Shown here: piece after piece, positions 1,351 to 49,851 of the stretch
Layout of the letters: each line of letters starts with the position of its first letter
Numbering within the stretch: position 1 is the stretch's first letter
Assembly (NCBI GenBank): GCA_030601675.1
Contig: JAUWBN010000003.1
Location: forward strand, 2,255 to 66,254
Length of the DNA stretch: 64,000 nucleotides
Source of the DNA: Hadesarchaea archaeon
GTDB lineage: Archaea; Hadarchaeota; Hadarchaeia; Hadarchaeales; Hadarchaeaceae
Direction: 5' to 3'
Position numbers and translations under genes: made by a program
Notes under the pieces: generated by a model
Told to the model about the DNA's origin: nothing
What the model saw: only the letters and a program-made list of their open reading frames with translations
The model's database searches: none

Positions 1351-1356
1351 CTTCGC

Positions 1357-2756: not shown

Positions 2757-2875
2757 GGTGGCTCCAGTCGTTTTGGTTGCACGTCAATCGTCGATAATGG
2801 TATTAACGTTCAACGTATCATCGGGGCTATTTAAAGCTTTTTCTTTGAAGTTAGGGGATTTTTAAGGCTCGAAAT

Positions 2876-2922: not shown

Positions 2923-2930
2923 TTGAATAA

Positions 2931-6308: not shown

Positions 6309-6356
6309 GGGGAAAAACGCCAATCATCCCCTTCGCTTTTTTTATTTTTATTTATT
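6288..6356 (+). repeat. Direct repeat copy A (last 21 nt of the surface-protein CDS plus terminator)
   Basis: gcgatattccggaagcgctaaggggaaaaacgccaatcatccccttcgcttttttt... matches 7510-7576 at roughly 90% identity, with 2-3 indels. Confidence 0.85.
6299..6343 (+). terminator. Hairpin plus T-tract at the end of the surface-protein gene
   Basis: gaagcgctaagggg ... ccccttcgc followed by ttttttt. The stop codon lies inside the stem. Confidence 0.5.
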
Positions 6357-6445
6357 TTTTGTTTTGGACGAATTTCTGTCGATCTCAACTTGTGACTAAA
6401 TGTTTAGACGATAAAGTATAAATAATTAGACAAAGGTACATTTAA

Positions 6446-6979
6446 TTGATACTTATGGTACAACCGCTTGATCGAATATTTGGAAATCGGGTTTGCTGGT
6501 CGGTGCTCAATTTTTTCCTAAACAACCCAAACGGGGAATTTTACGAGCGCGAGATCCAGCAAAGGGTTGCAGCAGCGAGGGCGAGTGTCCGCAAATGGCT
6601 GCAAGCTCTGGAGCAGTTCGGCTTTATCTCAACGACCAGGCGGGGTAGGTTGAAGCTGCATAGGCTAAACCGCGAAAATCCACTTGTGAAGCAGCTGAAA
6701 GTTTTAAGCACGATGAGCGAACTCCTGCCAAAACTCGAGGGCTGCAAGGGCCGGGGCGAGATTTATCTTTACGGCTCAGCAGCACGCGGCGAAGGACTTG
6801 AGGACTCAGATTTGGATATCCTTGTGGTAGGACGTGAACGAGAGGTGATCGGTAAGGTCAAGGCAATCGACGAACGAATAAAGGTCAGCTTTTTTACCCC
6901 CCTCGAGTGGGCAAAAATGGCTAGGGAGGATCCGGCATTTTACGAGAGGGTTGAGCGGGACAAAATAAGGCTGGTGTAG
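6446..6979 (+). CDS. wHTH-fused minimal nucleotidyltransferase (MNT-type antitoxin-like)
   Basis: 177 aa. The NTase signature is YGSAARGEGLEDSDLDILVV (GS...DxD), and the N-terminal approximately 90 aa look winged-helix-like. ATG 6455 is a likely alternative start. Confidence 0.75.
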   Translation: MILMVQPLDRIFGNRVCWSVLNFFLNNPNGEFYEREIQQRVAAARASVRKWLQALEQFGFISTTRRGRLKLHRLNRENPLVKQLKVLSTMSELLPKLEGCKGRGEIYLYGSAARGEGLEDSDLDILVVGREREVIGKVKAIDERIKVSFFTPLEWAKMAREDPAFYERVERDKIRLV

Positions 6980-7402
6980 ATGGACATTGAGAGTTGCCTG
7001 CGGGAGGGTTTCTTGCAGCAAATAAAAGTGGAGCGAGACCTCATCGAGAAGGAGTTCAAGGAGGCGAAATATGACGTCGGGAAGGCTGAGCGAGCGCTCG
7101 AGGAGGGCGACTTTAAGTGGTCGATTGTTAAAAGCTATTACTCTATGTTTCACGCTGCCCGCGCGGTATTGTTTTCGCGCGGGTTCAAGGAGCGGCGGCA
7201 CTTCGCAATTAGAGTCGTGTTGGAAGACTTAAACATGAAGGGGAAGTTGGAAAGCAAGTTCATCTCAGATTTTTCCGCTGCGCTTGGCGCGAGGGAGGAT
7301 GCTGACTACAGGTATACCTACTCGCAAGAAACCGCCGCTTATCTCTTGAGTGCTGCTGGAGATTTCTTAGCGAAGATGAAAAGGCTGGCGAAAAAGTCGT
7401 AG
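6980..7402 (+). CDS. HEPN domain protein (HEPN/MNT toxin-like partner)
   Basis: 140 aa, all-helical. It carries the conserved ...GAREDADY... motif of HEPN (PF05168-type). Its start lies immediately after the NTase stop. Confidence 0.75.
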   Translation: MDIESCLREGFLQQIKVERDLIEKEFKEAKYDVGKAERALEEGDFKWSIVKSYYSMFHAARAVLFSRGFKERRHFAIRVVLEDLNMKGKLESKFISDFSAALGAREDADYRYTYSQETAAYLLSAAGDFLAKMKRLAKKS

Positions 7403-7509
7403 CTAGCACCGCTTTTTCGAAAAGCCGCCTTAGTTGGGGCCGCGCAACTCCTGCTATTTGTCCTGTCACCTTAGTCAGCTTGGACGATCATCATGCGGGT
7501 GGCTCGGTC

Positions 7510-7576
7510 GCGATATTCCGGAAGCGCCAAGGGGGGAAAACACAATCATCCCCTTCGCTTTTTTATTTTTTATTTT
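7510..7576 (+). repeat. Direct repeat copy B (degenerate surface-protein 3' end plus hairpin/T-tract)
   Basis: gcgatattccggaagcgccaaggggggaaaacacaatcatccccttcgctttttt. The stop codon of copy A (TAA) reads CAA here. The repeat abuts the stop of the convergent fumarate hydratase beta gene. Confidence 0.85.
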
Positions 7577-8127
7577 CCCCAACGCTTTTGGTGTATGTAG
7601 AGGTTGTTTCCTTTTGTATCGATGGCCACCACGAGCGGTCCGAAGTTTAGAACTCGCAACACCCACAACGCCTCAGCCGTCCCCAGGTCCCGCCACAGCA
7701 CCCTTTCGACCCTTTCGATCGCTTGGGCAGCGAGCACCGCGGCGCCGCCCGTGAATGCTAAATAAACGCAGCCTAGCCGAGCCAGCTCCGCGGCAACCTC
7801 TTCACCGATCCCCCCCTTGCCTATAAGCACCCTCACGCCGGTTCGCCTGACAAATTCCGCCTGCATTCGGTCGAGGCGGGCGCTCGTCGTTGGCCCCCCC
7901 GACAAAATTTGCCAGCTGCGAGGGGTCTTTCTAACAATGGGCCCGCAGTGATAGATAACGGCACCACGAAGGTCAAGGGGCAACCGCTTTCCAGCCCGGA
8001 GGAGTTCAAGCGCTCTGAGGTAGGCCCTATCACGCGCGGTCACGATTCGCCCGTTTATCTTTACGAGTTCGCCGGCGCGCAGCTTCTTGACATCCCGCCC
8101 GCTGAGTGGTGGATTTAGGTTAATCAT
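7570..8127 (-). CDS. fumB: Class I (Fe-S) fumarate hydratase / tartrate dehydratase-type hydro-lyase, beta subunit
   Basis: 185 aa with the motifs IYHCGPIV and LIGKGG, typical of the beta subunit. It follows the alpha subunit gene. Confidence 0.8.
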   Translation of the reverse strand: MINLNPPLSGRDVKKLRAGELVKINGRIVTARDRAYLRALELLRAGKRLPLDLRGAVIYHCGPIVRKTPRSWQILSGGPTTSARLDRMQAEFVRRTGVRVLIGKGGIGEEVAAELARLGCVYLAFTGGAAVLAAQAIERVERVLWRDLGTAEALWVLRVLNFGPLVVAIDTKGNNLYIHQKRWGK

Positions 8128-9026
8128 CAGGGCGCCTCCACCCGCAAGCGCCCGTTAAGGAGCCTAGCACGAGCTCGTCTGGCAGCCCAGCACTGGAGCG
8201 CAACCGCGACTGGAAGGCTCGCGGTGTGGCAGGCGGCTTTCTCCACGTGCACGCCCAGCACCGTCGTTTGACCACCCAGCCCCATGGGGCCGATACCGAG
8301 CCTGTTCGCGGCTTGTGCGATCCGGCGCTCCAGCCTCGCAAGCCCCGCATCCGGGTTTGGTCTGTCCAGAGAACGTAGGAGGGCGCGCTTCGCCAGCACG
8401 GGGGCAACCTCGGCCGAACCCCCGACCCCCACGCCCACGATGGTCGGCGGGCAGGGTTGACCCCCGGCCTCCACGAGTGTCAACAGCACCGCTCGCTCGA
8501 TGGCTTTCCCCCCATCGGCAGGCCGGAGCATGAAAAACCTGCTCCAATTCTCAGCGCCCGCACCCTTGACGAGCAGGTCGATCGAGAGCTTTTTCCCAGG
8601 AATGAGTTCGAGGTGGACAGATGGCTGCTCGATGCCGACGTTGGTGCCGGTGTTCTTGCGGGTGAACGGGTCGACGATGTTTGCGCGCAGCGGCACCTCT
8701 CGCGTGGCTTGGGCGACGGCTTTGTCGAGGGCTTTTTTCAAATCGAAGTTGAGCTTGAGTTCAGAGCCGAGCCGGATGAAAAAGGTGAAGGTGCCGGTGT
8801 CCTGGCAGATGGGCGCTCCAAGCCTTTTTGCCAGTTCGAGATTTTTCAGCATGCAGTCGAGTTGTAGCCTGGCGATGCGGCCTCGTTCGCGCCCCCTGCT
8901 TCGTTTGAGCGCACGCACGATATCTTCTGGCAGGGCAGTTTCGGCGCGTCGAAGCATCTCAACGATGGCGGCTCGAAATTTGGGCTCGGTCAGCATGCAA
9001 TCGAGTTTTGATAAGGTTGGCAACAT
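8127..9026 (-). CDS. fumA: Class I (Fe-S) fumarate hydratase, alpha subunit
   Basis: 299 aa with the motifs CQDTGT and KGAGAEN, typical of the Fe-S hydro-lyase alpha domain. Confidence 0.8.
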   Translation of the reverse strand: MLPTLSKLDCMLTEPKFRAAIVEMLRRAETALPEDIVRALKRSRGRERGRIARLQLDCMLKNLELAKRLGAPICQDTGTFTFFIRLGSELKLNFDLKKALDKAVAQATREVPLRANIVDPFTRKNTGTNVGIEQPSVHLELIPGKKLSIDLLVKGAGAENWSRFFMLRPADGGKAIERAVLLTLVEAGGQPCPPTIVGVGVGGSAEVAPVLAKRALLRSLDRPNPDAGLARLERRIAQAANRLGIGPMGLGGQTTVLGVHVEKAACHTASLPVAVALQCWAARRARARLLNGRLRVEAP

Positions 9027-9046
9027 TATAACTCTAGCGCGGGAAG

Positions 9047-9424
9047 TTGAAACGTGCCCCCATGCGCTTGGTCGATCGAACTACCGGAAAGCTCTTGGCG
9101 AGCGAGGCCGAGCTGGCGGGCACCTTCTGGCGGCGCTTCCGGGGGCTCATGCTCAGGGGCAAGTTCCCACGCGGCGAGGCACTGCTTTTCAGCTTTCATA
9201 AACCGGGCCGCCACGGCGTCCACATGTTTTTTGTAAGGTTCCCCATCGACTTGGTGTATCTGGATTCAGGGTTCAAGGTCGTCGAGGTTCACGCGCGGCT
9301 CAAGCCTTGGCGCATCTACAGGCCCAAGGCGGCGGCGAAGTATCTGGCCGAGCTTCCAGCGGGGACGATTTCTCGTGCGCGCGTGGAGGTCGGGCACAAA
9401 ATTTCACTCGAGGGAAAAAGATAA
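9047..9424 (+). CDS. DUF192-family protein
   Basis: 125 aa. The pattern FWRRFRGLM...H..FVRFPIDLVYLD matches the DUF192 pattern. Confidence 0.6.
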   Translation: MKRAPMRLVDRTTGKLLASEAELAGTFWRRFRGLMLRGKFPRGEALLFSFHKPGRHGVHMFFVRFPIDLVYLDSGFKVVEVHARLKPWRIYRPKAAAKYLAELPAGTISRARVEVGHKISLEGKR

Positions 9425-9459
9425 AACCGATGAAAATAGACTAAATTTGCTGGCCGAGG

Positions 9460-10401
9460 TTGGCGGGGGGACGGAGAGATGAGCAGGTGGACGTCCCCAA
9501 AGCACTGGCCGAAGCGGCTGCACGTCTTGCTTTAGAGATCAATGCGGATGCCATCCTCGCCCTGACCAAAGATGGTAAAAGTTGTAGTCCTCTTTTCAAG
9601 AAGAACTTGTTTGGCACCCACGGGAAGGAGGTAAAAGTGGTACTTGCCACCCCCAGCCATGAAACTTACAAGAGATTCAACAGGAACCCCCACGTAAAAC
9701 TGATTAAGCTCACGGCGCGGGCACAGGGGATATCTGGCCAAGCCCATCATGCAATGGCGTGCGGGTTGCGGGAAGGGATATTTCTCCCAGGGCAGCGTTT
9801 GGTATGCTTGGCGGGGAATGGTTTCGCTGATAGCACCGATGCCCTCCTGGTCCTGCAGGTCTCCAAGCATGAGCCGGTGATGGAGATGGTCGAATCGGAC
9901 CCCGTTCTGGCCGCCGCAACTGAGATATCGCTCGAGCTCGGGAGGGGGACTTCGGGTGGCAAGCCCGTGGGCACGGCGTTCGTGATCGGGGACAGCAAGG
10001 CGGTCCTGAGGCTATCGCACCAACTGATGATCAACCCATTCAAGAGTTACCTGGTGAGCATCGCCGATAGAAAACAATGGGAGCTGATCAAGAGGTACGC
10101 CACTTTTGATGGAGCCTTCGTCGTGGGGGCCGATGGACGCGTCATCGCGGCGGAGCGCTATCTCAACGCGAACGTCAAGTTTGAAATCCCCCATGGTCTG
10201 GGCACGCGGCACCTGGCGGTCGCAGCCATGACCACGGCGACTGGGGCCAGGGGGGTAACGGTCTCCGGGGAAGATGGTGTGGTAAGAATTTTTAGAAGTG
10301 GCAAGCTAGTGGCGAGGATAGACCCGCACAGTGGCATCCTCGAACACCTGCGCGAGGCCTCGAGCCAGCCTGACGTTAAAAGTTTTAGGTCAAAGGCCTG
10401 A
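9460..10401 (+). CDS. dacZ: Diadenylate cyclase DacZ (PK-C-like N-domain plus DAC domain)
   Basis: The C-terminal half carries the DAC motifs DGAFVV and GLGTRH. The N-terminal domain resembles the pyruvate kinase C-terminal-like domain of archaeal DacZ. The start codon is uncertain. Confidence 0.7.
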   Translation: MAGGRRDEQVDVPKALAEAAARLALEINADAILALTKDGKSCSPLFKKNLFGTHGKEVKVVLATPSHETYKRFNRNPHVKLIKLTARAQGISGQAHHAMACGLREGIFLPGQRLVCLAGNGFADSTDALLVLQVSKHEPVMEMVESDPVLAAATEISLELGRGTSGGKPVGTAFVIGDSKAVLRLSHQLMINPFKSYLVSIADRKQWELIKRYATFDGAFVVGADGRVIAAERYLNANVKFEIPHGLGTRHLAVAAMTTATGARGVTVSGEDGVVRIFRSGKLVARIDPHSGILEHLREASSQPDVKSFRSKA

Positions 10402-10419
10402 AGTACTGTTAGGGTTGGG

Positions 10420-12132
10420 ATGCGTTACGCGACTTTAGCTGAGGCCTTTGAGAAGCTGGAGCACACCCCATCTTATCTGAAAAAAAATTCGGTTATCGTC
10501 GAGTTGTTGAAGTGCACGCCGGCCGAGGGGATGGAGCGAGTTATCCTGCTCCTGCTCGGCAGACCTTGGCCCGCTTACATTTCTAAGGAGACCGGCGTTG
10601 GGCTACAGCAGCTCAAGAAGGCGGTCGCGAAGGCGGCAGGTTATTCGGCAGCTGAAGTGGATAAGCTCATGAAGCAGGTCGGCGATCTCGGTGAGGTCGC
10701 CAAGCAACTTCTGGAGAAGAAAAGACAGACGACTCTATCCGTCGAGCAGCTGACGGTGAAAAAGGTCTTCGAGAACGTTAAACAGTTGCCTGAGATCACT
10801 GGTGAGGGCTCGGTGGACCGAAAGATAGCTTCAATCGCCGAACTCTTAACGAGCTCCACCCCGCTCGAGGCTAAGTTCATCGTCCGCACCGTGATCGGCG
10901 ACCTCCGAATAGGTGTGGCGGAGGGAAGGCTCAGGGATGCAATAGCGAGCGCGTTCGGCGTGAAACCAGGGGTGATCGAGCACGCCTACATGCTCACGAC
11001 GGACTACTCGATCGTCGCGAAGGCGGTTGCCACGAGTGGGGAAAAAGGCCTCGAGAAGCTCGGGGTCGCGGTTGGGCACCCCGTGAACCCCATGCTGGCG
11101 CAGCGAGCTGAGACGATCGACGAGGTTCTCGAGCGGATGAAGGGAAAGGCGGCGTTCGAGATAAAGCTCGATGGCATCAGAGTTCAGGTCCACAAGGACG
11201 GCGATAGGATCTCGCTCTTCACGAGGCGGATGGAGGATTACACCAAAATGTTTCCAGATGTCATCGACCCATTGCGTCAAGCGCTGAAACCGAAGCGGGC
11301 GATAGTCGATGGGGAGCTGGTGGCGATCGATAAACGCACGGGGAAGCCCATGCCTTTCCAAGAGGTGCTCAAGCGGCGCCGCAAGTACGAGATCAAGCAG
11401 ACGATCGAACAAATCCCAGTTGAGATCCACCTGTTCGATGTGTTGATGTCGGATGGTAGCGTGATGCTCGATGAACCCTACGTCGAGCGGAGGAAGACGC
11501 TGGAGCGGATCATCAGGGAAGTAAAGGGCAAGGTGATGATGACTGAACAACGGGTCCTCAGCAAGCCAGATGAGATAAAAGAATTCATGAGCAAGTCAAT
11601 CGAGATAGGTCATGAGGGGTTGCTGGCGAAGGATCTTGAGGCGAGTTATCGTGCGGGGCGGCGCGAGTTCGTGTGGCTCAAGCTTAAACCCATGTTGGAG
11701 ACCCTCGACTTGGTCGTGGTCGGGGGGCTCTACGGCAAGGGCAAGCGCGTCGGCTTCTTTGGCAGCTACGTGCTTGCAGCGCGCGATGAGAAGAGCGGGC
11801 GCTACAAGACGGTGACGAAGTGCGGGAGTGGATACACCGATGAGGAGCTGAAAGAGTTCACGAAAATCTTCAAGAAGCTCCAGCTAAAAAAGCCCCATCC
11901 GGATGTTGATATCGAGATCGATTGCGACGCGTACTTTGAGCCCCGAATAGTGTTCGAGACCTATTTCGAGGAAATCCAAAAATCACCAAAATTAAAACAC
12001 ACGAGTAGATTCGGCCTAAGGTTCCCGAGGCTAGTTAGGATAAGAGAAGATAGGCGGGCGGAGGAGGCAAACACGATTAAAGACGTTGCGGGCCTGTACG
12101 AAAGACAGCAGAAAAGGAAGGCAAAAGTTTGA
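10420..12132 (+). CDS. lig: ATP-dependent DNA ligase
   Basis: 570 aa. The adenylation motif I is EIKLDGIRVQ, and the overall layout is typical of archaeal Lig. Confidence 0.9.
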   Translation: MRYATLAEAFEKLEHTPSYLKKNSVIVELLKCTPAEGMERVILLLLGRPWPAYISKETGVGLQQLKKAVAKAAGYSAAEVDKLMKQVGDLGEVAKQLLEKKRQTTLSVEQLTVKKVFENVKQLPEITGEGSVDRKIASIAELLTSSTPLEAKFIVRTVIGDLRIGVAEGRLRDAIASAFGVKPGVIEHAYMLTTDYSIVAKAVATSGEKGLEKLGVAVGHPVNPMLAQRAETIDEVLERMKGKAAFEIKLDGIRVQVHKDGDRISLFTRRMEDYTKMFPDVIDPLRQALKPKRAIVDGELVAIDKRTGKPMPFQEVLKRRRKYEIKQTIEQIPVEIHLFDVLMSDGSVMLDEPYVERRKTLERIIREVKGKVMMTEQRVLSKPDEIKEFMSKSIEIGHEGLLAKDLEASYRAGRREFVWLKLKPMLETLDLVVVGGLYGKGKRVGFFGSYVLAARDEKSGRYKTVTKCGSGYTDEELKEFTKIFKKLQLKKPHPDVDIEIDCDAYFEPRIVFETYFEEIQKSPKLKHTSRFGLRFPRLVRIREDRRAEEANTIKDVAGLYERQQKRKAKV

Positions 12133-12138
12133 TTTAGG

Positions 12139-13560
12139 TTAGCCGAGTTGATCGATTACCCGATCTTCGAGTTTCAGCAAAAATTCCGGGAGCCTCTTTT
12201 CATCCACTTGGGCGCCACAGGCGACGGCGTGCCCACCACCCTCCCCCCCGACAGACCCTGCGGCATCGCGTATCGCCCGCCCCATGTCCAAACCCTTTAG
12301 GAATAGGAGCTTCGAGCATCGCGCGGAAATCTTGGCGGCGCCGCCTTCCCTGATCATACCCACCACGGGCTTGTAGGGGTCGCAGGTCCGATGCCCGATC
12401 GCGAGGCCAGCTATCGTCCCAATGAAGGTCTCCTTTATCTCCCCCGTCGCGTCGAAATATTGCAAGTACCCGCGGCGTCCCCGCTCGAGCCCACTTTGTT
12501 CGATGAATTCCATGCCCTCGGCGATGCAACGTCGGTGATAGCGGAGCAGGTTCAACATCGCACGATAGTAAGTCCCGCGGTCACCTTTGGCTACCTCGAG
12601 ACCTATCAATGGCTGCTCGTGGCGCGCGGTCGAGTTTATGCAGGTCGAGAATTCGTCGGCACCGCGGAGCATCGACCGTTTGTTCTCCTTCAGCAGCGTG
12701 TGGGCCTCGCCGATTATCAGACCCGGCACGTACTGCACGAGTTCCTCCGGCACATTTTTGTAAGCCCGCGCGATCAGCTCCGTTGCCAGCCGGCGTTTTT
12801 CGACATCGGTGAGGTCGACGGGGCGACGCCATCCACCATCGCTCTTGAACGGGATGTCGAGATCCTTGAGCAGGCTCACGCAGCCAGGGGCCGAATTGCT
12901 GACGCCGGGAATCGGGGGGTCTGTGAATAACTCAAGCGCCTTGAAGATCGGTCGGGTGTGCCGTCCGTAAAGCATCAGGTCGATCTTTTGCTCAAGAACC
13001 TTTGAGTCGATGCTATCTTGGGCGATCTGCCGGTTATAGCCGAGCAACTTCCCCCAGGCATTCTGGATGTCGCCAAGTGCGCCGATGATCGCGAGCCCCG
13101 AGAGGTCCCGGTTGGCTTGGTCCAACTCCCGAACGATGAAGTAGGCCATGCCAGCCCCGCTTATCTCCTGCATGCCGTCCAAGCCAAATTGGTGGGCGTT
13201 GAGGTGAACGAGTTCCCGCCAGCCCTCTGTCCGCTCCGGCTCGTGATGGTCGGCGATGATGACGTCATGCCCGGAAAATTTGTCGCGGACATTTTGAAGC
13301 TGGGAGCTGCCGAGGTCGGTGAAAATGGTTAGGTCGGTGGGCTCGAGCTCTTCGACGACCTCTCGATAAAGCATGCGGACGAACCTCGCGTGATGTTCAA
13401 CGTTGTTTCGTTCGAGAGCTTTAGAAATTACCGCGGCCGCGCACACACCATCGGCGTCCATGTGCGAGATGATTTCGATGGAATCGTTTCGGTGTTTTTT
13501 GATCAGCTCTGCGGCTTTTCGCGCGACGGTGAGCATGGAGTTCCCAATTAATCTGTGCAT
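12139..13560 (-). CDS. DHH-family RecJ/Cdc45-like nuclease (GAN-type)
   Basis: 473 aa with the DHH motifs SHMDADG and ADHHEP and a C-terminal GGGH motif. Confidence 0.75.
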   Translation of the reverse strand: MHRLIGNSMLTVARKAAELIKKHRNDSIEIISHMDADGVCAAAVISKALERNNVEHHARFVRMLYREVVEELEPTDLTIFTDLGSSQLQNVRDKFSGHDVIIADHHEPERTEGWRELVHLNAHQFGLDGMQEISGAGMAYFIVRELDQANRDLSGLAIIGALGDIQNAWGKLLGYNRQIAQDSIDSKVLEQKIDLMLYGRHTRPIFKALELFTDPPIPGVSNSAPGCVSLLKDLDIPFKSDGGWRRPVDLTDVEKRRLATELIARAYKNVPEELVQYVPGLIIGEAHTLLKENKRSMLRGADEFSTCINSTARHEQPLIGLEVAKGDRGTYYRAMLNLLRYHRRCIAEGMEFIEQSGLERGRRGYLQYFDATGEIKETFIGTIAGLAIGHRTCDPYKPVVGMIREGGAAKISARCSKLLFLKGLDMGRAIRDAAGSVGGEGGGHAVACGAQVDEKRLPEFLLKLEDRVIDQLG

Positions 13561-16661: not shown

Positions 16662-17111
16662 ATGGAGAAAAAAACATTTATTTATCTTGGGCTTATCGGC
16701 GGTATCTTAGCGGCGGTTGGGGTCTTCCTCGAGTGGGCATCAATATCGGTGAACATTCCAGGCGTCTTCACATATTCAGCATCAGCATCAGGGTGGGATG
16801 CTACAGCAGGGATGGCTGCACCATACCTTGCTCTAGCAGGCGGCATCCTCGCGTTGCTAGGTGGTCTCGGGCTACTAATGGGTAAGAGGGGCCTCGGCTT
16901 CTTGCTCCCCATAGGCGGGATACTCGCCATCGCAGGTTCGGCTTGGGCCTTTGTCGATATCAACGCTGCGATAGCGGGAGTGGCAGCGGTAATAGTACAG
17001 ATAGAGGCCCTTGGCGGATCGGCATCAGTAGGTGTCGGCTATGGTCTCTACCTATCTATCGTCGGCGGCGTAATGGCCCTAATTGGCTCGCTCGGCCTGA
17101 AGGGAAAGTAA
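16662..17111 (+). CDS. Small Gly/Ala-rich polytopic membrane protein, unknown function
   Basis: 149 aa with 4-5 hydrophobic segments. A strong SD (aaggaggtga) precedes the ATG, and a hairpin terminator follows. Confidence 0.6.
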   Translation: MEKKTFIYLGLIGGILAAVGVFLEWASISVNIPGVFTYSASASGWDATAGMAAPYLALAGGILALLGGLGLLMGKRGLGFLLPIGGILAIAGSAWAFVDINAAIAGVAAVIVQIEALGGSASVGVGYGLYLSIVGGVMALIGSLGLKGK

Positions 17112-17150
17112 ACCCGCTAACACGCCACTAAGCGGGTTTTTTAATTTTTT
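17112..17150 (+). terminator. Hairpin plus T-tracts
   Basis: acccgct (17112-17118) pairs with agcgggt (17131-17137), followed by tttttt aa tttttt. Confidence 0.55.
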
Positions 17151-17208
17151 AATTATTTACTGTGGGAAATCGAGCACGCTTTTTGGTGAGTTATAACATA
17201 CAGTCAAG

Positions 17209-17304
17209 GGGCCGGTAGTCTAGCCTGGATTACGCAAAAACGTCCAGAGAGGACGCGAGCCTCCGGAGCTTGCGGCACGGGTTCGAATCCCGTCCGGCCC
17301 GCCA
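17209..17304 (+). tRNA. tRNA-Arg (anticodon CCG) with an 18-nt insertion/non-canonical intron in the D-loop, CCA encoded
   Basis: Acceptor GGGCCGG/CCGGCCC, anticodon arm CGAGC-CTCCGGA-GCTTG (CCG at 17263-17265), T arm ACGGG-TTCGAAT-CCCGT. The D stem GTCT...GGAC closes only if about 17233-17250 (cgcaaaaacgtccagaga) is removed. Confidence 0.7.
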
Positions 17305-17330
17305 CTAAAATCTATGAAATGAACACAAAC

Positions 17331-17747
17331 CTAGCCGACATAGCTCGGGCGCTCATCACCGGGTTTAGGCGGCTTGGGCATGCCCGGCAACGGGATTGGC
17401 GGGGGGATGTTGAGCGAGCGGGAGAGAACGGTGGCCTCGATGAGCGAAACGTTGGTTATGGATTGGAGCAGCTGGGGTGGTGGGGCGTGCTGCTTTTTGT
17501 AACTCTCTTGGATTTTTTCAAGCTCCTCCGGCTTGCCCGATAAAATCGCCTGCCCCTTGAGAGATATCTGCGCGATCGACGGGGTGTAGCCGATCGTCAC
17601 GACGAAGGGAATGGACAGCTTCTCATCTTTCGATTCGACACCCACTATGTTGACATTGGTCGAGATGTGCACTCCGGCTGGGGCGGGTTTGCCGTGCTCC
17701 CAGAATCGCTCCGCGGAGATGTAGCTGATACTCACGCTCACGCGCAA
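17331..17747 (-). CDS. Hypothetical protein with a Pro-rich C-terminus
   Basis: 138-aa ORF between two tRNA genes. I recognised no motif. Confidence 0.45.
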   Translation of the reverse strand: MRVSVSISYISAERFWEHGKPAPAGVHISTNVNIVGVESKDEKLSIPFVVTIGYTPSIAQISLKGQAILSGKPEELEKIQESYKKQHAPPPQLLQSITNVSLIEATVLSRSLNIPPPIPLPGMPKPPKPGDERPSYVG

Positions 17748-43563: not shown

Positions 43564-43932
43564 TTGATACAAAAATGCCGAGGTGATTTAATGGGTGAGA
43601 TAGAAAAATCTATAGCGGATTTTCAAGAAATGATGGGGGTTCTCTCGAAAGAAAGTAGAGAAGCGATGCACCACTTCAGAGCCTTCATGGATTCAGTGCT
43701 TGAAAAAAAGGTTCTAGACACCAAAACTAAGGAGTTAATTGCCCTAGGAACTGCGATAACCGCGAGGTGCAAGTACTGCATCGCCATACACGTCAAAAAA
43801 TCGCTCGCGGCCGGTGCTACTAGGGAAGAGATATTGGAAGCAGCCACAGTAGCTATCTTGATGGGTGGAGGTCCAGCCTTAACCTATGTGACGGAGGTTA
43901 AGAAAGCGTTGGACGAATTTGCAATCAAATAA
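43564..43932 (+). CDS. Carboxymuconolactone decarboxylase / AhpD-like protein
   Basis: CxxC motif (ARCKYCIAIH). About 113-122 aa depending on the start. Confidence 0.7.
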   Translation: MIQKCRGDLMGEIEKSIADFQEMMGVLSKESREAMHHFRAFMDSVLEKKVLDTKTKELIALGTAITARCKYCIAIHVKKSLAAGATREEILEAATVAILMGGGPALTYVTEVKKALDEFAIK

Positions 43933-43971
43933 TTTAAGCGCATCAACCCCCTCGGCTAAAGAGGGGGGCCC

Positions 43972-44451
43972 TTGGAGAAGTCGAAGGCAGAGCAGCTCGT
44001 GTTGATTTTCGACCCCGAGCGGTGCACGGGCTGCCGGTACTGCGAGATCGCATGCTCATTCCAACACTACGGCACGCTTACCCCCGAGCGATCCCACATC
44101 CGAATATTTGTCGACCCACAGCGGATGGAGCTCGAGGCCTCAGATTGCCAGCACTGCGAGGAACCGGCGTGTGCCGCGGCCTGCCACGAGGATGCGATAG
44201 CGAAGGATGAGACGAAGGGATGGGTTACGCTAAATTCAATGAAGTGCACAGGTTGCTACTCGTGCATCTTCGCCTGCCCGCTCTCTTGCCCTTGGTTTGA
44301 CAAAGAGCATCGCGTAGCGGCAAAGTGCGATTTCTGCGATGGGGATCCCGTGTGCGTGAAATATTGCTCACCCCAAGCGATAAGAGTGGGAACCCGGGCC
44401 GAGGCGCTCAAGTTTGCCCGCCAGCGCTACAGGAGGGAAAAAAGTGCCTAG
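43972..44451 (+). CDS. CooF/HycB-like ferredoxin with four Cys clusters
   Basis: Cys motifs: CTGCRYCEIAC, CQHCEEPACAAAC, CTGCYSCIFACP, CDFCDGDPVCVKYC. Confidence 0.8.
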   Translation: MEKSKAEQLVLIFDPERCTGCRYCEIACSFQHYGTLTPERSHIRIFVDPQRMELEASDCQHCEEPACAAACHEDAIAKDETKGWVTLNSMKCTGCYSCIFACPLSCPWFDKEHRVAAKCDFCDGDPVCVKYCSPQAIRVGTRAEALKFARQRYRREKSA

Positions 44452-45106
44452 CGGCGCCGAGATCGTCGAGCGGCTCAAGTCTGAGGCGGGAGTGCTGAGC
44501 GCGGGCGTGGAGCGCGAGCGGAAGGTTAGTGCAGCGATCGAGTCAGCCGCCATTCAAAATATTGCTCAAACCCTGTTCAACTCGGGGGCGAGGTTCGTGA
44601 TCATCGCGGCCGCCGACAAAGGCTTGGATATTGACTTGCTTTATCACTTCGACTTGGGAGGTACCCTCATCGTCCTGCAGACCTCGGTCGCGAAGGAAGC
44701 GCCCGAAATTGAAAGCATCGCTGAACTGGTGCCAGCGGCGGAGTGGGCGGAGAAGGAGGTGGCAGAGCTCTTCGGCGTGAACTTCCGAGGGCATCCAAAG
44801 CCGGGCCACTTCCAGCTGCCTGACGATTGGCCCACCGGCGATTACCCGTTGGGTAAGCCGTTCAAGCCAAAGCTACCCGATGAGATCTGCCCCGTCGCGG
44901 AGTCCATAACCTCAGTGGGTGCAACGGCTCCGCTGACGCCGCTGATGCAGCGGAAGCGTGAGGAAGCAGGTCTGCCAGCCCAGCCGCCGGCCAGCTACTC
45001 AGACGAGGCATCGCTGCGCGAGGTCCACGAGCTTGCAAGGTACACGGAGTTCGACAAGCTGGCCGGGTACGATTGGAAGAAGAAAAAATTGAGGGGAAGC
45101 AGGTGA
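44444..45106 (+). CDS. NuoC/MbhK-like (30-kDa) hydrogenase/complex I module subunit
   Basis: DIDLLYHFDLGG...AAEWAEKEVAELFGVNFRGHP is typical of NuoC/HycE-N. GTG 44444 follows the SD ggaggg and overlaps the ferredoxin stop. Confidence 0.75.
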   Translation: MPSGAEIVERLKSEAGVLSAGVERERKVSAAIESAAIQNIAQTLFNSGARFVIIAAADKGLDIDLLYHFDLGGTLIVLQTSVAKEAPEIESIAELVPAAEWAEKEVAELFGVNFRGHPKPGHFQLPDDWPTGDYPLGKPFKPKLPDEICPVAESITSVGATAPLTPLMQRKREEAGLPAQPPASYSDEASLREVHELARYTEFDKLAGYDWKKKKLRGSR

Positions 45107-45981
45107 AAAAATACGCGGTGTTCTTAGGTTGCTTGATTCCCCAGCGGCTACCAAGCGTCGAGCTTGCGGCGCGCAAAGTTTTCGAACTCACTAACATTGA
45201 GGCAGTGGATCTAGAGGGCTACACCTGCTGTCCAGATCCGATCCTAGCGCGCCTCATGGATCGAAAGATGGGGCTGAGCCTCGCCGCGAGGAACCTCAGC
45301 TTGGCCGAAAAGCTCGGGCTCGACCTCGTGGTGCTGTGCAACGGTTGTTACGAGACGCTGTTCGAGGGGAATGAAAGCCTGAAACACGAGCCGGAGCTTA
45401 GGAGAGAGGTCAACGAGACCCTCGCCCGAATTGGGAGGAGCTACGAGGGCAAGATAGATGTCAATCATGTGGTCGAGGTGCTTTACGAGGATGTTGGAAT
45501 AGAGCGCATCAAAAAACTTGTCAGGCGACCCATCCGGGCGAAGCTGGTGATCCACCCAGGTTGCCACCTCTTCCGGGAGCACGAAGGGGTCGACATATGG
45601 CGAAAGATTAGGCAGCTGGAGGAGCTCGTTCTCGCGACGGGGGCGGAAGTCGTACACAGCAAGCTAGATCGCCTGTGCTGTGGCTTCCCCACGATGGCGG
45701 TAAACGAGGAGCTGGCGCTCAAGCAAAACTTGCAACCGAAGCTCGAGTGCTACCAACACGCTGGCGTCGATGGGGTGGTCGTGTGCTGCCCAGCGTGCGG
45801 TGTCCAGTTTGAGACCGGGCAGGTGCTGCTTCGAAAGTACGGTGCCAGATTCAACATCCCCTGCCTGCACGTGGTCGAGCTACTTGCGCTTGCGTTCGGG
45901 GTCCCGGCCCGAGAGCTGGCGCTGGGCTTCCACCGCAGTCCCGTGCCCCAGCTGGCGGCGAAGGTGGTTGGAGATGTCTAA
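45103..45981 (+). CDS. HdrB-like protein with two CCG domains
   Basis: The KYAVFLGC N-terminus is present, with CCG domain 1 (CCPDP...CNGC) and CCG domain 2 (CCGFP...CCPAC). GTG 45103 overlaps the upstream stop. Confidence 0.75.
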   Translation: MKKYAVFLGCLIPQRLPSVELAARKVFELTNIEAVDLEGYTCCPDPILARLMDRKMGLSLAARNLSLAEKLGLDLVVLCNGCYETLFEGNESLKHEPELRREVNETLARIGRSYEGKIDVNHVVEVLYEDVGIERIKKLVRRPIRAKLVIHPGCHLFREHEGVDIWRKIRQLEELVLATGAEVVHSKLDRLCCGFPTMAVNEELALKQNLQPKLECYQHAGVDGVVVCCPACGVQFETGQVLLRKYGARFNIPCLHVVELLALAFGVPARELALGFHRSPVPQLAAKVVGDV

Positions 45982-47113
45982 GGTAATCATGGTGGGTCCG
46001 TATCATCCGGCGCTGCTCGAGCCGGAACTCTACGAGGTCACCGTGCGGGATAAAAAAATAGTGGATGTTGGGATCAAGCAGGGCTACACCCACCGAGGCA
46101 TCGAGCGATTGATGGAGACAAAGAGCTTCCACCAGAACATCATACTCGCCGAACGCATCTGCGGACTCTGCTCCCAGGCCCACTCCTGCTCCTACTGCCA
46201 GACGGTCGAGGGACTTTTTGGCGTTGAAATTCCGGAACGGGCCTCGTACATCCGCGCGTTGGTCTTTGAGCTCGAGCGCCTTCACAGCCATTACATGTGG
46301 CTGGCGCTGCTCTTCCACACGCTCGGCGACGAGCAGCGGTTTATCAAAATAATCGATGCGCGCGAGCGACTGATGGACCTGTTCGAACTGGTATGTGGCA
46401 ACCGCGTGCACTACTCGATAAATGCGTTGGGCGGGGTCAGGCGGGACCTGAAGCCGGAGGCGGCCAGGCGGGTTAAAACTCTCTTACCCGAACTAGAGCG
46501 TTTGACCGAGGATATCATGCGTGCTCTGAAGAGCGCAGCGCCAAAGCTTGAGGGCAAGGGACCACTGTCCAAGGAGGAGGCCCTAGCCTATGGTGTCGTG
46601 GGGCCCGTGCTCCGCGCGTCGGGTGTGAAGAGCGACATTAGGCGAGATGATCCCTATGCGGCGTATGGGGAGGTCGATTTCGAGGTAATCACAGAGGATG
46701 GCTGTGATGTCTTGGCGCGGGCGTTGGTGAGGGCCCGGGAGACCCACGAGAGCGCGGACATCATCCAGCAGCTGCTTGGGGGCCTTCCGGCTGGAGACAT
46801 CAAAACCGAGGTCGGCAAGCCGCCCGCGGGCGAGGAGTCGGGCAGGGTCGAGGCGCCCCGCGGGGAGTTGATTTATTTCATCAGGTCGAACGGCAGCAAC
46901 ATTCCCGAGCGGGTGAAGCTCAGGCCCCCGACCTACATGAACGATCGCGCGGTCGTCGAGATGTTACGGGAGCAAGAACTCATTGACCTGCCGGTTATCT
47001 TGGAGAGCTTGGATCGATGCATTTCCTGCACCAATCGTCTGACGGTGATCGATGAGCGAACGGGCAAGAGGCGGTTCGTGAGTTTAACCGACCTCAAGAG
47101 GGGAACGTCATGA
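45974..47113 (+). CDS. [NiFe] hydrogenase large subunit, group-4 (NuoD/EchE/MbhL-like)
   Basis: About 380 aa from ATG 45974. The N-terminal NiFe motif is RICGLCSQAH. The C-terminal motif DRCISCTNR is followed by a 24-aa extension. The upstream 68 codons of the ORF track overlap the HdrB-like gene and are rejected. Confidence 0.8.
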   Translation: MSKVIMVGPYHPALLEPELYEVTVRDKKIVDVGIKQGYTHRGIERLMETKSFHQNIILAERICGLCSQAHSCSYCQTVEGLFGVEIPERASYIRALVFELERLHSHYMWLALLFHTLGDEQRFIKIIDARERLMDLFELVCGNRVHYSINALGGVRRDLKPEAARRVKTLLPELERLTEDIMRALKSAAPKLEGKGPLSKEEALAYGVVGPVLRASGVKSDIRRDDPYAAYGEVDFEVITEDGCDVLARALVRARETHESADIIQQLLGGLPAGDIKTEVGKPPAGEESGRVEAPRGELIYFIRSNGSNIPERVKLRPPTYMNDRAVVEMLREQELIDLPVILESLDRCISCTNRLTVIDERTGKRRFVSLTDLKRGTS

Positions 47114-47985
47114 AGGAAATCGGCATCTATCGGCTGGACGTGGGCTCGTGCAACGGGTGCGACATCGAGGTGCTCAGCGCCCTGGCCCCGAGGTTCGGGT
47201 TGGCGAAGCTCGGGGTGAAGTTCGTCGATGAGCCCAGCGAGGCAAGCGTGCTCCTCGTCACCGGTGTGCCGACCGTCAAGATGCGTGAGCCGCTCAAGCA
47301 GGTTTACGAGAAGCTAAGGGACCCGAAGTTAGTCGTCGCGGTGGGCGCCTGCGCGTTGGCCGGCGAGGCGTTTGAGGATTCCTACAGCATCGACGGGATG
47401 ACGGACGAGGTGATTCGGGTTAATGTTTACGTTCCGGGTTGCCCGCCCAGCCCGCAGGCGATCGTCGGCGCGCTCGCAGAGGCCTTGGGAATCAAACCGA
47501 AAGTTTGGTCGGCGCCCCAGGGCTTCAGAGGCTACCCCCAGGTCGATGCGGAAAAGTGCACGGGCTGCGGTGCATGTGAGCAAGTTTGTCCGACGCGCGC
47601 GATTGAGCTGATAGACGGGGAGGAAAAGCGAACCGTGAAATTCAAGTACGAGAAGTGCATCTCCTGCGCGACCTGTGAGGAAGCCTGCCCGGAGGATGCG
47701 ATCGAGATGGCAGCCGAGCGTCCTCCTCCGACGCGAGATCGAAAGGCGATTGGAACGAGCGTGGAGGTCGGGCTGGCAAAGTGTTTGGATTGCGGCACCC
47801 CCTTCGTCCCCTCGCGGCAGCTCCGGGCGCTTTCCGACCGAATCGTGTCCAACGTTGGAGAGTACAAGGCCCTCCGCGATGAAATCGAGCGGGCAGCGAG
47901 CATTTGTGCGAAGTGCAGGGGCGAGATAGAAAATCTGAGGAAGGCGAAGGTCCTCCTCCTCGAACTCACGGAGGCTCTCAGCTAG
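47110..47985 (+). CDS. NuoB-like hydrogenase small subunit fused to a 2x[4Fe-4S] ferredoxin domain and a Cys4 tail
   Basis: Small-subunit motifs GSCNGC, GACA and PGCPP. These are followed by CTGCGACEQVCP and CISCATCEEACP, and then by CLDC...CAKC. Confidence 0.8.
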   Translation: MKEIGIYRLDVGSCNGCDIEVLSALAPRFGLAKLGVKFVDEPSEASVLLVTGVPTVKMREPLKQVYEKLRDPKLVVAVGACALAGEAFEDSYSIDGMTDEVIRVNVYVPGCPPSPQAIVGALAEALGIKPKVWSAPQGFRGYPQVDAEKCTGCGACEQVCPTRAIELIDGEEKRTVKFKYEKCISCATCEEACPEDAIEMAAERPPPTRDRKAIGTSVEVGLAKCLDCGTPFVPSRQLRALSDRIVSNVGEYKALRDEIERAASICAKCRGEIENLRKAKVLLLELTEALS

Positions 47986-48087: not shown

Positions 48088-48354
48088 CTAGGCTATTTTG
48101 TAGACGATGTCGCCCTCACGCACACGCTGTTCGACCTTGAGCCCGATCGACTGCCCCGCGCTTGCGCTCTGAACGTTCTCGTGCTCGATTTCCATCGAGT
48201 TAATCGTTTGCTGCAGGTTGGTCGTCGCGCCCTCGATTGAGATGCGGTCACCTACTTTGAGCTCATCGGAAAGCTCGATGACTCCCACTCCTATCTTGGT
48301 GAAGTAGTGAGCTATCTTTCCCACGAGCTTCTTCTCCACAGGTGCTTCTTCCAT
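48088..48354 (-). CDS. Small beta-barrel protein (EF-Tu domain 2-like)
   Basis: 88 aa. The pattern VGVIELSDELKVGDRISIEG...GQSIGLKV...GDIVY resembles translation-factor domain II barrels. Confidence 0.45.
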   Translation of the reverse strand: MEEAPVEKKLVGKIAHYFTKIGVGVIELSDELKVGDRISIEGATTNLQQTINSMEIEHENVQSASAGQSIGLKVEQRVREGDIVYKIA

Positions 48355-48435
48355 TCACCTCACCAGATTAAGATAGAATCCTCTAATTAAATGCCTTTCC
48401 GCCCATGATATAGCCGAGATCTATCCCTCGCAAAG

Positions 48436-48756
48436 TCAGCGCTTCTTGCCCACGTTTAGAATCCCTAGGCGATAGCCCATGCGGCGACCTAGCTCAGGGT
48501 ACATCCTAGCTATGCCGAGCGTTATTCCCCAGCCACCGAAGATCACAGCAGTAATTGTGGCCCCCAAAAGCAAGTCCATGAGCGGCGCTTTTCCGAGGAG
48601 GAATAGCTCGCCGTTCCAGAGGTGGTCCACTAGTCCGAACAATGCGCCCCCGTAGAGCAGCAGGTTAAGCCACCACCCTGCGGGACCCCTTCTCTTGGAA
48701 CCCCATACGACCGATGAAATTATGGCCGCCACCAAGGGTATGGTGTAACAAACCAC
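48436..48756 (-). CDS. Small membrane protein, unknown function
   Basis: 106 aa with three hydrophobic helices. Confidence 0.45.
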   Translation of the reverse strand: MVCYTIPLVAAIISSVVWGSKRRGPAGWWLNLLLYGGALFGLVDHLWNGELFLLGKAPLMDLLLGATITAVIFGGWGITLGIARMYPELGRRMGYRLGILNVGKKR

Positions 48757-48838
48757 TTTTCTGCACCTCCTAGAGCTTAATAATACTTTTTACCTTAAAA
48801 ATATTACTTATCCAACATGGAAAGCTTGAAAATGTCTG

Positions 48839-49267
48839 ATGATAAGGTTTGCTGGGCGCAGCATGGTTCAAAAAATCACGCGTGTAAGTTTGACGTTACC
48901 TGAAGATTTACTGAACGAACTCGATCGTTCGCTCAAGGCCCAGCGCTACGCTAGCCGTTCCGAGGCGGTTCGAGACGCGTTACGCGATTTCTTGGCGAGC
49001 TATCGTTGGCGGAGCGAGCTGAAGGGCGAGCAGCTTGGTGCAATCCTCGTGATGTATGAACACGATGTTCGGGGGGTAACCGATGTGCTCATGGATATCC
49101 AACATGAGAGTGCGAACCTCATAAGCGCGGTTCAGCACCTACACGTGGATGCTAAAAATTGCTTAGAGGTTCTCATCGTCCGAGGACCAGCTGAGGGAAT
49201 TAGGCAACTCGTCAATCGCTTGGGTGCTCAGCGAGGTGTCAAACAGGCCAAGCTGGTGGTCGTCTGA
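48839..49267 (+). CDS. nikR: Nickel-responsive regulator NikR
   Basis: RHH N-terminus (ITRVSLTLPEDLLNELD...SRSEAVRDALR). The C-domain aligns with E. coli NikR (from memory), with equivalents of H76, H87, H89 and C95 present (IQHE, HLH, NCLE). The likely start is MVQKI at 48860. Confidence 0.85.
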   Translation: MIRFAGRSMVQKITRVSLTLPEDLLNELDRSLKAQRYASRSEAVRDALRDFLASYRWRSELKGEQLGAILVMYEHDVRGVTDVLMDIQHESANLISAVQHLHVDAKNCLEVLIVRGPAEGIRQLVNRLGAQRGVKQAKLVVV

Positions 49268-49851
49268 AATTAAATGAATTCTTAGAGCGGCTCAACAACC
49301 TCAAGCGCATCCCCCGCACGGGCTGGTTGCTCTGCAATGTCCCCCTCAGCGAGGTTGAGGATGTGGCGCAGCACACGTTCGATGTTGTGACGATTACTTT
49401 GGTACTCACCGATGAATTCGAGCGCGGAGGCAAGAAACTCGACCGGGAACGAGCGCTCAGCATGGCGGTCGTGCACGATTGGGCTGAGGCATTGGTCGGC
49501 GACTTCCCCTACACAGCCTTGAAACACTTGGGACCCACTGGCACGAAGAAACGCATCGAAAAAAGAGCACTTGAGGACCTCTTGGGCAAGCTGCCAAATA
49601 AAGAAAAATACCTAAAGCTTTGGCGGGAGTACAGCGAGAAGCGCAGCCCCGAGGCCAAGCTCGTCCACGCTGCTGATTATCTCTCGATGCTCGTGCAGGC
49701 GGTCAAATATCGGGAGCGAGGTAACCGATCGCGCGAACTGGACGAACTCTGGCGGGCGGTCTGCAAGGATCTGAAGCCATACGCTAGGGAATTTCCGGTA
49801 GTGAAGGGACTGATAATAGAGTTAGAGAAGCGTTATTCTAGTATTCCCTAG
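49264..49851 (+). CDS. HD-domain phosphohydrolase (YfbR-like 5'-nucleotidase family); start codon unclear
   Basis: HD motif AVVHDWAEALVGD. The conserved N-terminal LNEFLERLNNLKRIPRTGW region is in frame upstream of the track's TTG (49327), but no ATG/GTG/TTG precedes it. Confidence 0.65.
   Translation: MKLNEFLERLNNLKRIPRTGWLLCNVPLSEVEDVAQHTFDVVTITLVLTDEFERGGKKLDRERALSMAVVHDWAEALVGDFPYTALKHLGPTGTKKRIEKRALEDLLGKLPNKEKYLKLWREYSEKRSPEAKLVHAADYLSMLVQAVKYRERGNRSRELDELWRAVCKDLKPYAREFPVVKGLIIELEKRYSSIP

Follow-up and report, generated by a model that had tools for sequence, protein, structure and literature searches.

The 64-kb stretch of Hadesarchaea archaeon DNA analyzed here (contig JAUWBN010000003.1; called the window below, with all positions in window coordinates unless a locus is named) carries at 43972-47985 five plus-strand open reading frames (ORFs) that, judged from sequence, are a conserved, membrane-free derivative of the already recognized HdrB-interacting group-4 [NiFe] hydrogenases. 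We give an even chance to the more specific reading that the operon encodes a cytoplasmic five-subunit H2:disulfide oxidoreductase, in which HdrB is clamped by an HdrC-derived tail and no ions are pumped. This soluble reading is the best one because the cluster has no neighboring membrane-subunit gene in any of 12 orthologous loci and the partner is a genuine HdrB-like protein. An initial annotation of the window had proposed such an H2:disulfide oxidoreductase built from complex-I-like parts, and that proposal is partly supported here. The novelty it implied was overstated: genome-based accounts of HdrB-linked group-4 hydrogenases date back to 2015, and there is a membrane-bound sister clade with the same core of ferredoxin, NuoC, HdrB, and large subunit.

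The genes, numbered 1 to 5 from left to right, are predicted to encode a four-cluster ferredoxin, a NuoC-like protein with an HdrC-derived tail (NuoC::HdrC tail), an HdrB-like protein, the hydrogenase large subunit, and a fusion of a NuoB-like small subunit to a HycF-like domain (NuoB::HycF) (Table 1). Stop and start codons overlap at all four junctions (by 8, 4, 8, and 4 nt for genes 1/2, 2/3, 3/4, and 4/5), and a Shine-Dalgarno-like motif precedes each of the likely starts GTG 44444, GTG 45103, ATG 45974, and ATG 47110; an alternative start of gene 4, TTG 45968, is the one used in a 100%-identical database protein (P0001). The five coupled genes of the initial annotation are therefore all present, coordinates and overlaps included. 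Its statement that none of the five products looks membrane-spanning also holds, as no 19-residue window in any of them reaches a Kyte-Doolittle mean of 1.6, the criterion used for a membrane helix. Gene 3 comes close, with 1.59 at residue 260 (counted in the 302-aa ORF), in a stretch that lines up with a segment conserved in soluble HdrB.

By its domains and motifs, gene 4 encodes a NuoD-type large subunit of a group-4-type [NiFe] hydrogenase. It matches the Pfam families Complex1_49kDa (PF00346, E 4.2e-61) and NiFeSe_Hases (PF00374, E 4.5e-14), and its best solved relatives are E. coli HycE (7z0s_E, 244 bits) and Pyrococcus MbhL (6cfw_L, 228 bits), with all NuoD/Nqo4 chains scoring lower. 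The predicted NiFe ligands C63 and C66 (in the L1 motif RICGLCSQAH) and C349 and C352 (in the L2 motif DRCISCTNR) are invariant across 16 aligned homologues. Exactly 24 residues follow R355, and every aligned homologue carries an extension of 20-24 residues after that Arg, so that both the cysteine pairs and the 24-aa extension noted at the outset are borne out. The gene 4 score falls under every NCBIfam cutoff, and at two non-cysteine positions its L2 motif does not fit the published consensus [DE][PL]Cx[AGST]Cx[DE][RL]. Across the L2 segment (47018-47044), a Hadarchaeal subclade with DRCISCTNR can be told from a Bathyarchaeal subclade with DPCF[AS]CTDR; the former has Arg for Pro/Leu and Asn for Asp/Glu, and the cysteines are kept. 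The large-subunit alignment revealed no clear deletion specific to the soluble clade in the NuoH-facing loops.

The product of gene 3 is, by profile score, HdrB-like and not LutA-, GlcF-, or SdhE-like, because its score with the HdrB model TIGR03288 (264.3 bits) is far above those with SdhE (95), LdhH (62), and GlcF (31) and because it matches the solved methanogen HdrB chains 8rvu_b and 5odc_B over its full length (E ~1e-66). This answers the caution, raised with the first annotation, that the protein might group with LutA, GlcF, or SdhE. The HdrB-type N terminus and both CCG motifs that had been read there correspond to two CCG domains (PF02754, E 2.8e-25), whose cysteines C10, C42, C43, C79, C82, C154, C192, C193, C229, and C232 are invariant in 14 sequences. 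Identity is 38% to methanogen HdrB over the full length and 43-64% to the counterparts in related clusters.

Gene 2 offers a physical explanation for how HdrB would be attached. Residues 1 to ~150 form a NuoC/MbhK-like domain without cofactor cysteines (Complex1_30kDa, PF00329, E 4.2e-19), which is as far as the initial annotation went; the C-terminal part had been overlooked. In a single-sequence search, the last ~60 residues match four different HdrC chains. A profile of 14 tails of this type matches residues 107-182 of the 184 residues of HdrC (5odc_C) with E 3.6e-13, and its top five matches are all HdrC. Residues ~141-220 thus match the C-terminal part of HdrC; the ferredoxin domain of HdrC is missing. 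In the Hdr structure published in 2017, this C-terminal part reportedly wraps around HdrB. The tail is conserved on NuoC in all HdrB-carrying relatives that we compared, in the soluble and the membrane-bound clades alike.

The ferredoxin encoded by gene 1 (Fer4_11, E 1.7e-15) was correctly described as CooF/HycB-like with four Cys motifs. Its best solved relatives are 6x6u_B, 9mqx_E, and 8c0z_C, and HycB itself (7z0s_B) is another; its likeness is to connector subunits with four clusters, namely those of WOR5, AOR, Fdh-N, and HycB. All 16 ligand cysteines are invariant in 14 sequences.

Gene 5 combines an Oxidored_q6 domain (PF01058, E 9.4e-24) with a 2x[4Fe-4S] Fer4 domain. Residues ~5-126 resemble the NuoB/HycG/MbhJ small subunit with its one proximal [4Fe-4S] cluster and residues ~135-205 the HycF/NuoI domain, and the likeness to HycF extends to residue ~270; the NCBIfam HycF-like model PRK12387 spans residues 136-274, and the solved relatives are 7z0s_G, 6cfw_J, and 7z0s_F. 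Among 9-14 orthologues, the proximal-cluster cysteines C14, C17, C81, and C111 are invariant, and all 16 cysteines of the protein are essentially so. The domains of this fusion had been recognized from the start, together with a cysteine-containing tail whose identity had not. The tail (CLDC...CAKC; C225, C228, C266, and C269) aligns to HycF's C-terminal extension with nearly equal cysteine spacing and is, by this alignment, a HycF-type Cys4 single-metal site, with no further cubane cluster motif. In Escherichia coli HycF, the corresponding four cysteines hold one metal ion where HycF meets HycB and its partner enzyme FdhF (PMC9474812). The full-length fusion is rare, with ~12 representatives at the 50% identity level among 1.84 billion proteins.

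Compared with the membrane-bound sister clade described below, gene 5 consists of that clade's NuoB (residues 6-127) and NuoI-like protein, here NuoI* (residues 131-285), fused in swapped order. Both halves have lost their N termini. The soluble form lacks the NuoB segment containing ARKKSPW, which is present in the sister clade and in an Mbh NuoB, and it lacks the N-terminal segment and the TxKYP motif of NuoI*, both of which the sister clade keeps. In complex I, the NuoB N terminus contacts NuoH. The HycF N terminus, the homologue of the one lost from NuoI*, is an amphipathic helix at the membrane surface that is conserved throughout the complex I superfamily (PMC9474812).

The loci that we compared as the soluble clade are the window and L001, L003, L005, L008, L009, L010, L011, L034, L088, L089, and L090. 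Close relatives of the large subunit number in the hundreds, in Hadarchaeales/Hadesarchaea and above all in Bathyarchaeia; the 120 matches listed are all at least 51% identical to it. The gene order ferredoxin, NuoC::HdrC tail, HdrB-like protein, large subunit, NuoB::HycF recurs in 12 of 12 independent loci from Hadarchaeota and Bathyarchaeia, and in none of them does a NuoH- or NuoL-type gene adjoin the cluster. The lack of a neighboring membrane-subunit gene, first noted for the window alone, is a conserved property of the orthologous clade. Within the window, phmmer found no homologue of NuoH, HycI, HypA, HdrA, MvhD, or GcvH, and neither a full hdrC nor an HdrC ferredoxin domain is present there.

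The sister clade, surveyed with one genome per species, is found in Bathyarchaeota, an Asgard metagenome-assembled genome (MAG), and Nezhaarchaeales, and its large subunits are 44-47% identical to gene 4. Its gene order is ferredoxin-(NuoL)-NuoC::HdrC tail-HdrB-large subunit-NuoH-NuoI*-NuoB, plus further NuoL genes, with NuoI* and NuoB as separate genes in the opposite order to the halves of gene 5. In a neighbor-joining tree of the loci compared here, soluble loci and membrane-bound HdrB loci fall into two separate clades. All more distant relatives lie in classical Mbh/Mrp-type clusters without HdrB. Various loci have HycI, HypF, HypD, NikR, or ZIP genes next to the cluster, with the HycI protease gene adjoining it in L001, L003, and L034; such a neighborhood of maturation and nickel genes is consistent with the NiFe enzyme being active.

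Several loci at the edges of this comparison have features of their own. On a contig labeled Methylomirabilota bacterium (L013, 1-3600), the cluster is permuted, with a NuoB::HycF fragment first and then ferredoxin, NuoC::HdrC tail, HdrB, and a large subunit that ends exactly at ...CLSCTDR, without a C-terminal extension; this is either a transfer of the cluster to a bacterium or a wrongly binned contig. In the Hadarchaeota locus L022 (10001-11729 and flanks), NuoC, large-subunit, and 193-aa NuoI-like genes lie on one strand and NuoH and NuoL genes on the opposite one, and HdrB is absent. The MAG behind L005 and L006 (GCA_030018135.1) is labeled "Candidatus Hodarchaeaceae" (Asgard) at NCBI, and the surroundings of its operon match the gene order of the window. 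With 92-93% identity to proteins of "Hadesarchaea archaeon," the S-adenosylmethionine synthetase of the window places the window in Hadarchaeota, and the label of the MAG seems to confuse Hod- with Had-.

If these assignments are taken together, the enzyme would be the soluble arm of an FHL- or Mbh-type hydrogenase (FHL, formate hydrogenlyase), with HdrB in the place of FdhF and the membrane arm deleted. In the electron path that we infer, as to cluster order, direction of reaction, and substrate, the NiFe site in the large subunit would first cleave H2. Second, electrons would go to the NuoB domain with its proximal [4Fe-4S] cluster and, third, through both clusters of the HycF-like domain fused to it. 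Fourth, they would probably move along the four clusters of the HycB-like ferredoxin. Finally, they would reach the two non-cubane clusters of HdrB, where a disulfide would be reduced, with HdrB held on the hydrogenase by the HdrC-derived C-terminal segment of the NuoC-like subunit. Because there is no NuoH- or NuoL-type partner, the reaction would be uncoupled from ion pumping.

Several considerations weigh against this scheme. The main weakness is energetic. The disulfide of coenzymes M and B (CoM-S-S-CoB) and its like have a potential of about -140 mV, and with such an acceptor uncoupled H2 oxidation would waste much energy; with a low-potential dithiol acceptor, the reaction would lie near equilibrium. 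Second, no equivalent of the N-terminal ferredoxin domain of HdrC was identified next to HdrB, and the last electron transfer step is assumed. Third, the 264.3 bits of gene 3 lie below the TIGR03288 equivalog cutoff for HdrB (345.15), and gene 3 represents its own subfamily, with 37-39% identity to the canonical HdrB proteins of the same Bathyarchaeal loci. Finally, four Bathyarchaeal loci have canonical Hdr/MvhD genes just downstream, and the enzyme may work there within a larger Hdr system.

This last point bears on the alternative that survives best, although we hold it to be unlikely: the hydrogenase and HdrB could be parts of a flavin-based bifurcating assembly, in which HdrA (with MvhD) encoded elsewhere docks on the HycB-like ferredoxin and H2 drives the reduction of both ferredoxin and a disulfide, a group-4 analogue of MvhAGD-HdrABC. 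In all characterized systems, HdrB works downstream of HdrA/HdrC or HdrE (PMC13518236). The same-strand genes directly downstream of the cluster are MvhD-HdrC-HdrB in L009, HdrC-HdrB and then HypF...HypD in L034, and HdrA-MvhD-HdrA in both L003 and L011. Bifurcation would also account for the retention of a ferredoxin that has four clusters and a free end, and it would remove the objection of wasted energy. However, hdrA and mvhD are missing from the five-gene unit of all 12 loci, and neither was found in the window or, for the Hadarchaeal loci, within 7-10 kb. Moreover, a direct iron-sulfur chain from the NiFe site to HdrB in one complex would short-circuit bifurcation unless HdrB were electronically isolated, and we see no sign of such isolation. 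The boldest version of this idea, which we regard as quite doubtful, is that the five-subunit complex is the H2-oxidizing, disulfide-reducing half of a new bifurcating machine, with HdrA/MvhD encoded elsewhere plugging into the free end of the ferredoxin, such that, with some thiol cofactor, a group-4 enzyme would do the job of Mvh (group 3c) in non-methanogenic Hadarchaeota and Bathyarchaeia.

It is also rather improbable that the enzyme mainly evolves H2, with electrons entering through the HycB-like subunit from reduced ferredoxin or a partner oxidoreductase and with HdrB as a thiol-linked second outlet or inlet, used, for example, for redox poising or for a low-potential dithiol such as a lipoyl-type carrier, close to equilibrium with the H2 of the environment. 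The closest solved relatives of gene 4, HycE and MbhL, do belong to H2-evolving enzymes, and relatives of gene 1 are connectors that take electrons from partners such as WOR5, AOR, and Fdh. A lipoyl connection is suggested by the membrane-type locus L087 of Nezhaarchaeales (585-12604), where genes for LplA, a radical S-adenosylmethionine protein, a GcvH that keeps its lipoyl lysine, and a flavoprotein resembling Lpd lie directly upstream and HycI follows, and by the Ehe cluster of Culexarchaeia, which also contains GcvH (PMC9723716). At the soluble-type loci, however, the GcvH-like genes next to the cluster in L003 (12088-12690), L011 (~16800-17390), and L089 (76-444) encode proteins with ETWMF or ETWRF instead of ES.K and hence no lipoyl lysine; they look like regulators, two of the three having an N-terminal ribbon-helix-helix domain. 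Genes for GcvH, LplA, and Lpd are all absent from the window, and H2 evolution from a dithiol of the -140 mV type is infeasible without an input of energy. Lipoyl-GcvH was rejected as the general disulfide substrate of the soluble form because the lysine is absent in L003, L011, and L089 and these genes are missing from the window. The gene set of L087 resembles the lipoate-binding-protein gene sets of the sHdr systems of sulfur oxidizers, and the GcvH-like proteins of L003, L011, and L089 may represent a regulator type not described before, in which the sensor domain has the GcvH fold.

The initial annotation had offered, as its other possibility, a detachable head on a membrane module encoded elsewhere, for example on the Mrp/Mbh-type operon whose first genes (MrpE/F/G/B/C-like) lie in the window and which leaves it at the left end before any NuoB/C/D/H/I position is visible. 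Such a head, detachable or peripherally docked, would still be ion-coupled. Exact-sequence look-ups with the 379-aa large subunit and an Mrp subunit gave no match that would carry the contig beyond the window. To our knowledge, all characterized group-4 hydrogenases are membrane-bound, and the sister clade shows that the same core can work on a NuoH/NuoL module; nevertheless, this possibility is very unlikely, weakened as it is by the deletion of the NuoB RKKSPW and NuoI N-terminal segments and the fusion of NuoB to NuoI, by the lack of an adjacent membrane gene in all 12 loci, by the complete Mbh-type operon that stands as a separate unit just upstream in L001 (Hadarchaeales) and has NuoL, a small subunit, NuoB, NuoC, a large subunit, NuoH, and NuoI of its own, so that this membrane module already has its own head, and by the Pyrococcus mbhA-G order of the operon in the window, a pattern that in Pyrococcus continues into the operon's own catalytic subunits.

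Table 1. The five-gene operon and neighboring features of the window
Feature	Position	Strand	Description
Gene 1	43972..44451	+	159-aa polyferredoxin, four CxxCxxCxxxC motifs (4x[4Fe-4S]), HycB/CooF/AorA/WOR5-B kind
Gene 2	44444..45106	+	220-aa NuoC/MbhK-like domain fused to HdrC C-terminal part
Gene 3	45103..45981	+	292-aa HdrB-like subunit, two CCG domains (two non-cubane [4Fe-4S] sites)
Gene 4	45974..47113	+	379-aa group-4-type [NiFe] hydrogenase large subunit (predicted)
Gene 5	47110..47985	+	291-aa NuoB::HycF fusion with Cys4 tail
CMD/AhpD-family gene	43591..43932	+	CxxC motif RCKYC; Pfam CMD E 1.8e-21; ends 39 nt upstream of gene 1
Convergent 88-aa gene	downstream of operon (48088-49851 block)	-	ORF
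106-aa membrane protein gene	48436-48756	-	divergent from NikR
NikR nickel-responsive regulator	48839..49267	+	NikR_C E 3.1e-26 and RHH_1; 854 bp downstream of gene 5
Mbh/Mrp-type operon start	1-2446	-	MrpE-, MrpF-, MrpG-, MnhB-, MrpC/NuoK-like genes, Pyrococcus mbhA-G order

The flanks of the operon are as first annotated, with an AhpD-like gene upstream, a convergent small gene downstream, and, 0.85 kb away, NikR with its nickel-site ligands, which read H-x11-H-x-H-x5-C. The CMD/AhpD-like CxxC protein was considered as a conserved partner and rejected, as the relatives have an FeS_assembly_P gene at that position. After the CMD/AhpD gene, within 43591-43968, there is a perfect 7-bp inverted repeat (CCCCCTC ... 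GAGGGGG), the 3' arm of which also serves as the ribosome-binding site of gene 1. On the other side, the 48088-49851 block, made up of the 88-aa gene, the 106-aa membrane gene, NikR, and an HD-domain 5'-nucleotidase-like gene, is kept in the Hadarchaeal relatives L005 and L088, and the membrane gene/NikR arrangement recurs in L005/L006 and L088, the closest Hadarchaeal relatives. A ZIP metal transporter gene directly follows gene 5 in L088, and another lies near the cluster in L007. The conserved NikR block and the ZIP genes suggest a local link to nickel supply. Elsewhere in the window, a plus-strand ORF at 2931-6308 encodes 1125 residues that have a signal-like segment at the N terminus, contain many repeats of the AG.NL type, and carry a hydrophobic anchor at the C terminus; the product looks like an S-layer or surface protein.

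If the soluble H2:disulfide reading is true, the definition of group 4 as membrane-bound, ion-pumping relatives of complex I would break, and the complex I "Q-module" would prove reusable as a soluble redox enzyme. Even without bifurcation, it would be the first group-4 hydrogenase to be fully cytoplasmic. With a common catalytic core, the membrane-coupled and the uncoupled version would form a natural pair for asking what the membrane arm contributes. In Hadarchaeota and Bathyarchaeia, which are abundant in the subsurface and uncultured, the operon also points to a thiol/disulfide cofactor with a role in H2 metabolism. In practical terms, five small soluble subunits are a far easier target for expression and cryo-electron microscopy than the membrane-bound Ehd, Ehe, Ehg, and Drh complexes.

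These four complexes are the HdrB-linked group-4 hydrogenases described from genomes since 2015 (PMC9723716, PMC6046458). Drh, the Ech-Hdr-like "disulfide-reducing hydrogenase," is encoded in Methanocella by Mtc_0479-0486 (Lyu & Lu 2015 via PMC6046458). Ehd occurs in Methanomethylicia, Ehe in Culexarchaeia, and Ehg in Nezhaarchaeia, and an "Ehd-like" group includes Bathyarchaeia (PMC9723716; Borrel 2019, Kohtz 2022). All four are presented as membrane-bound or membrane-associated, and none has been characterized biochemically (PMC9723716, PMC6046458). The novel group-4 complexes of Asgard archaea and of termite-gut Bathyarchaeia ("Hfo") differ in being without HdrB (PMC11291895, PMC7886697). 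In the full texts searched, we found no description of a form without any membrane subunit or of the NuoB::HycF or NuoC::HdrC-tail fusion, the original Drh and Ehd papers being known to us via secondary sources, so that an earlier mention is possible.

Among better understood enzymes, MvhAGD-HdrABC shares with the predicted complex that it is cytoplasmic and ties a [NiFe] hydrogenase to an HdrB bound through HdrC. In Hdr complexes, electrons arrive at the two non-cubane clusters of HdrB via HdrC (PMC13518236). The hydrogenase of MvhAGD-HdrABC, however, belongs to group 3c, and its electrons must cross the bifurcating flavin adenine dinucleotide of HdrA; that complex also has a full two-cluster HdrC and MvhD, whereas hdrA, mvhD, and full hdrC are absent from the window. 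Another comparison is with the soluble arm of E. coli FHL (HycB, HycE, HycF, and HycG; group 4a; 7Z0S), which is the best solved match for the large-subunit, small-subunit, and NuoC parts and has the same set of iron-sulfur subunits and the same Cys quartet in HycF's C-terminal extension. Its relay runs FdhF-HycB-HycF-HycG-HycE (PMC9474812). FHL differs in having FdhF as its partner enzyme, in sitting on the membrane subunits HycC and HycD, in the fusion of its NuoC-like domain to the large subunit rather than to an HdrC tail, and in that HycF and HycG are separate proteins.

Drh too is a group-4/Ech-like [NiFe] hydrogenase encoded with an HdrB gene and known from genomes and transcripts only; it too has no antiporter-like (EchA/NuoL) subunit, and direct coupling of H2 to a disulfide, with no ion gradient built, has been proposed for it. 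In contrast to our system, it includes drhB, by the Ech-based gene names a membrane subunit of the EchB/NuoH type, and is described as membrane-associated. Its gene order is drhB ... hdrB-drhC-E-D-F-G, where, going by the gene list, the NuoB-type drhC and the NuoI-type drhF are separate. Its host is a methanogen and its substrate presumably CoM-S-S-CoB; this comparison is by description.

Ehd, the Ehd-like group, Ehe, and Ehg share the core described here and its gene order: the HycB-like ferredoxin comes first, then NuoC carrying the HdrC tail, then HdrB, and last the large subunit. Both forms also have the HdrC-tail fusion and a Cys4 tail of the HycF type. Unlike the operon described here, Ehd, Ehe, and Ehg carry NuoH- and NuoL-type membrane subunits, for which ion pumping has been proposed, and their NuoI-like and NuoB genes are separate, in the order NuoH-NuoI-NuoB, with the N-terminal segments kept. 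The sister-clade large subunits, those of Nezhaarchaeales included, are 44-47% identical to gene 4 and separate from it in the neighbor-joining tree, the named clades being compared by description. What a group-4 enzyme has in its soluble part, a NiFe large subunit and NuoB-, NuoC-, and NuoI-type subunits, is present in the operon, whereas the window has no NuoH homologue and no NuoH- or NuoL-type gene lies in or next to the cluster in the 12 loci. Likewise, the hydrogenase and hdrB share one cluster, as in the HdrB-interacting group-4 enzymes, and the membrane-bound trait of those enzymes is lacking. By these comparisons, the operon would fall within that recognized family, as the form that has kept the catalytic core and the HdrB partner and has shed the membrane arm.

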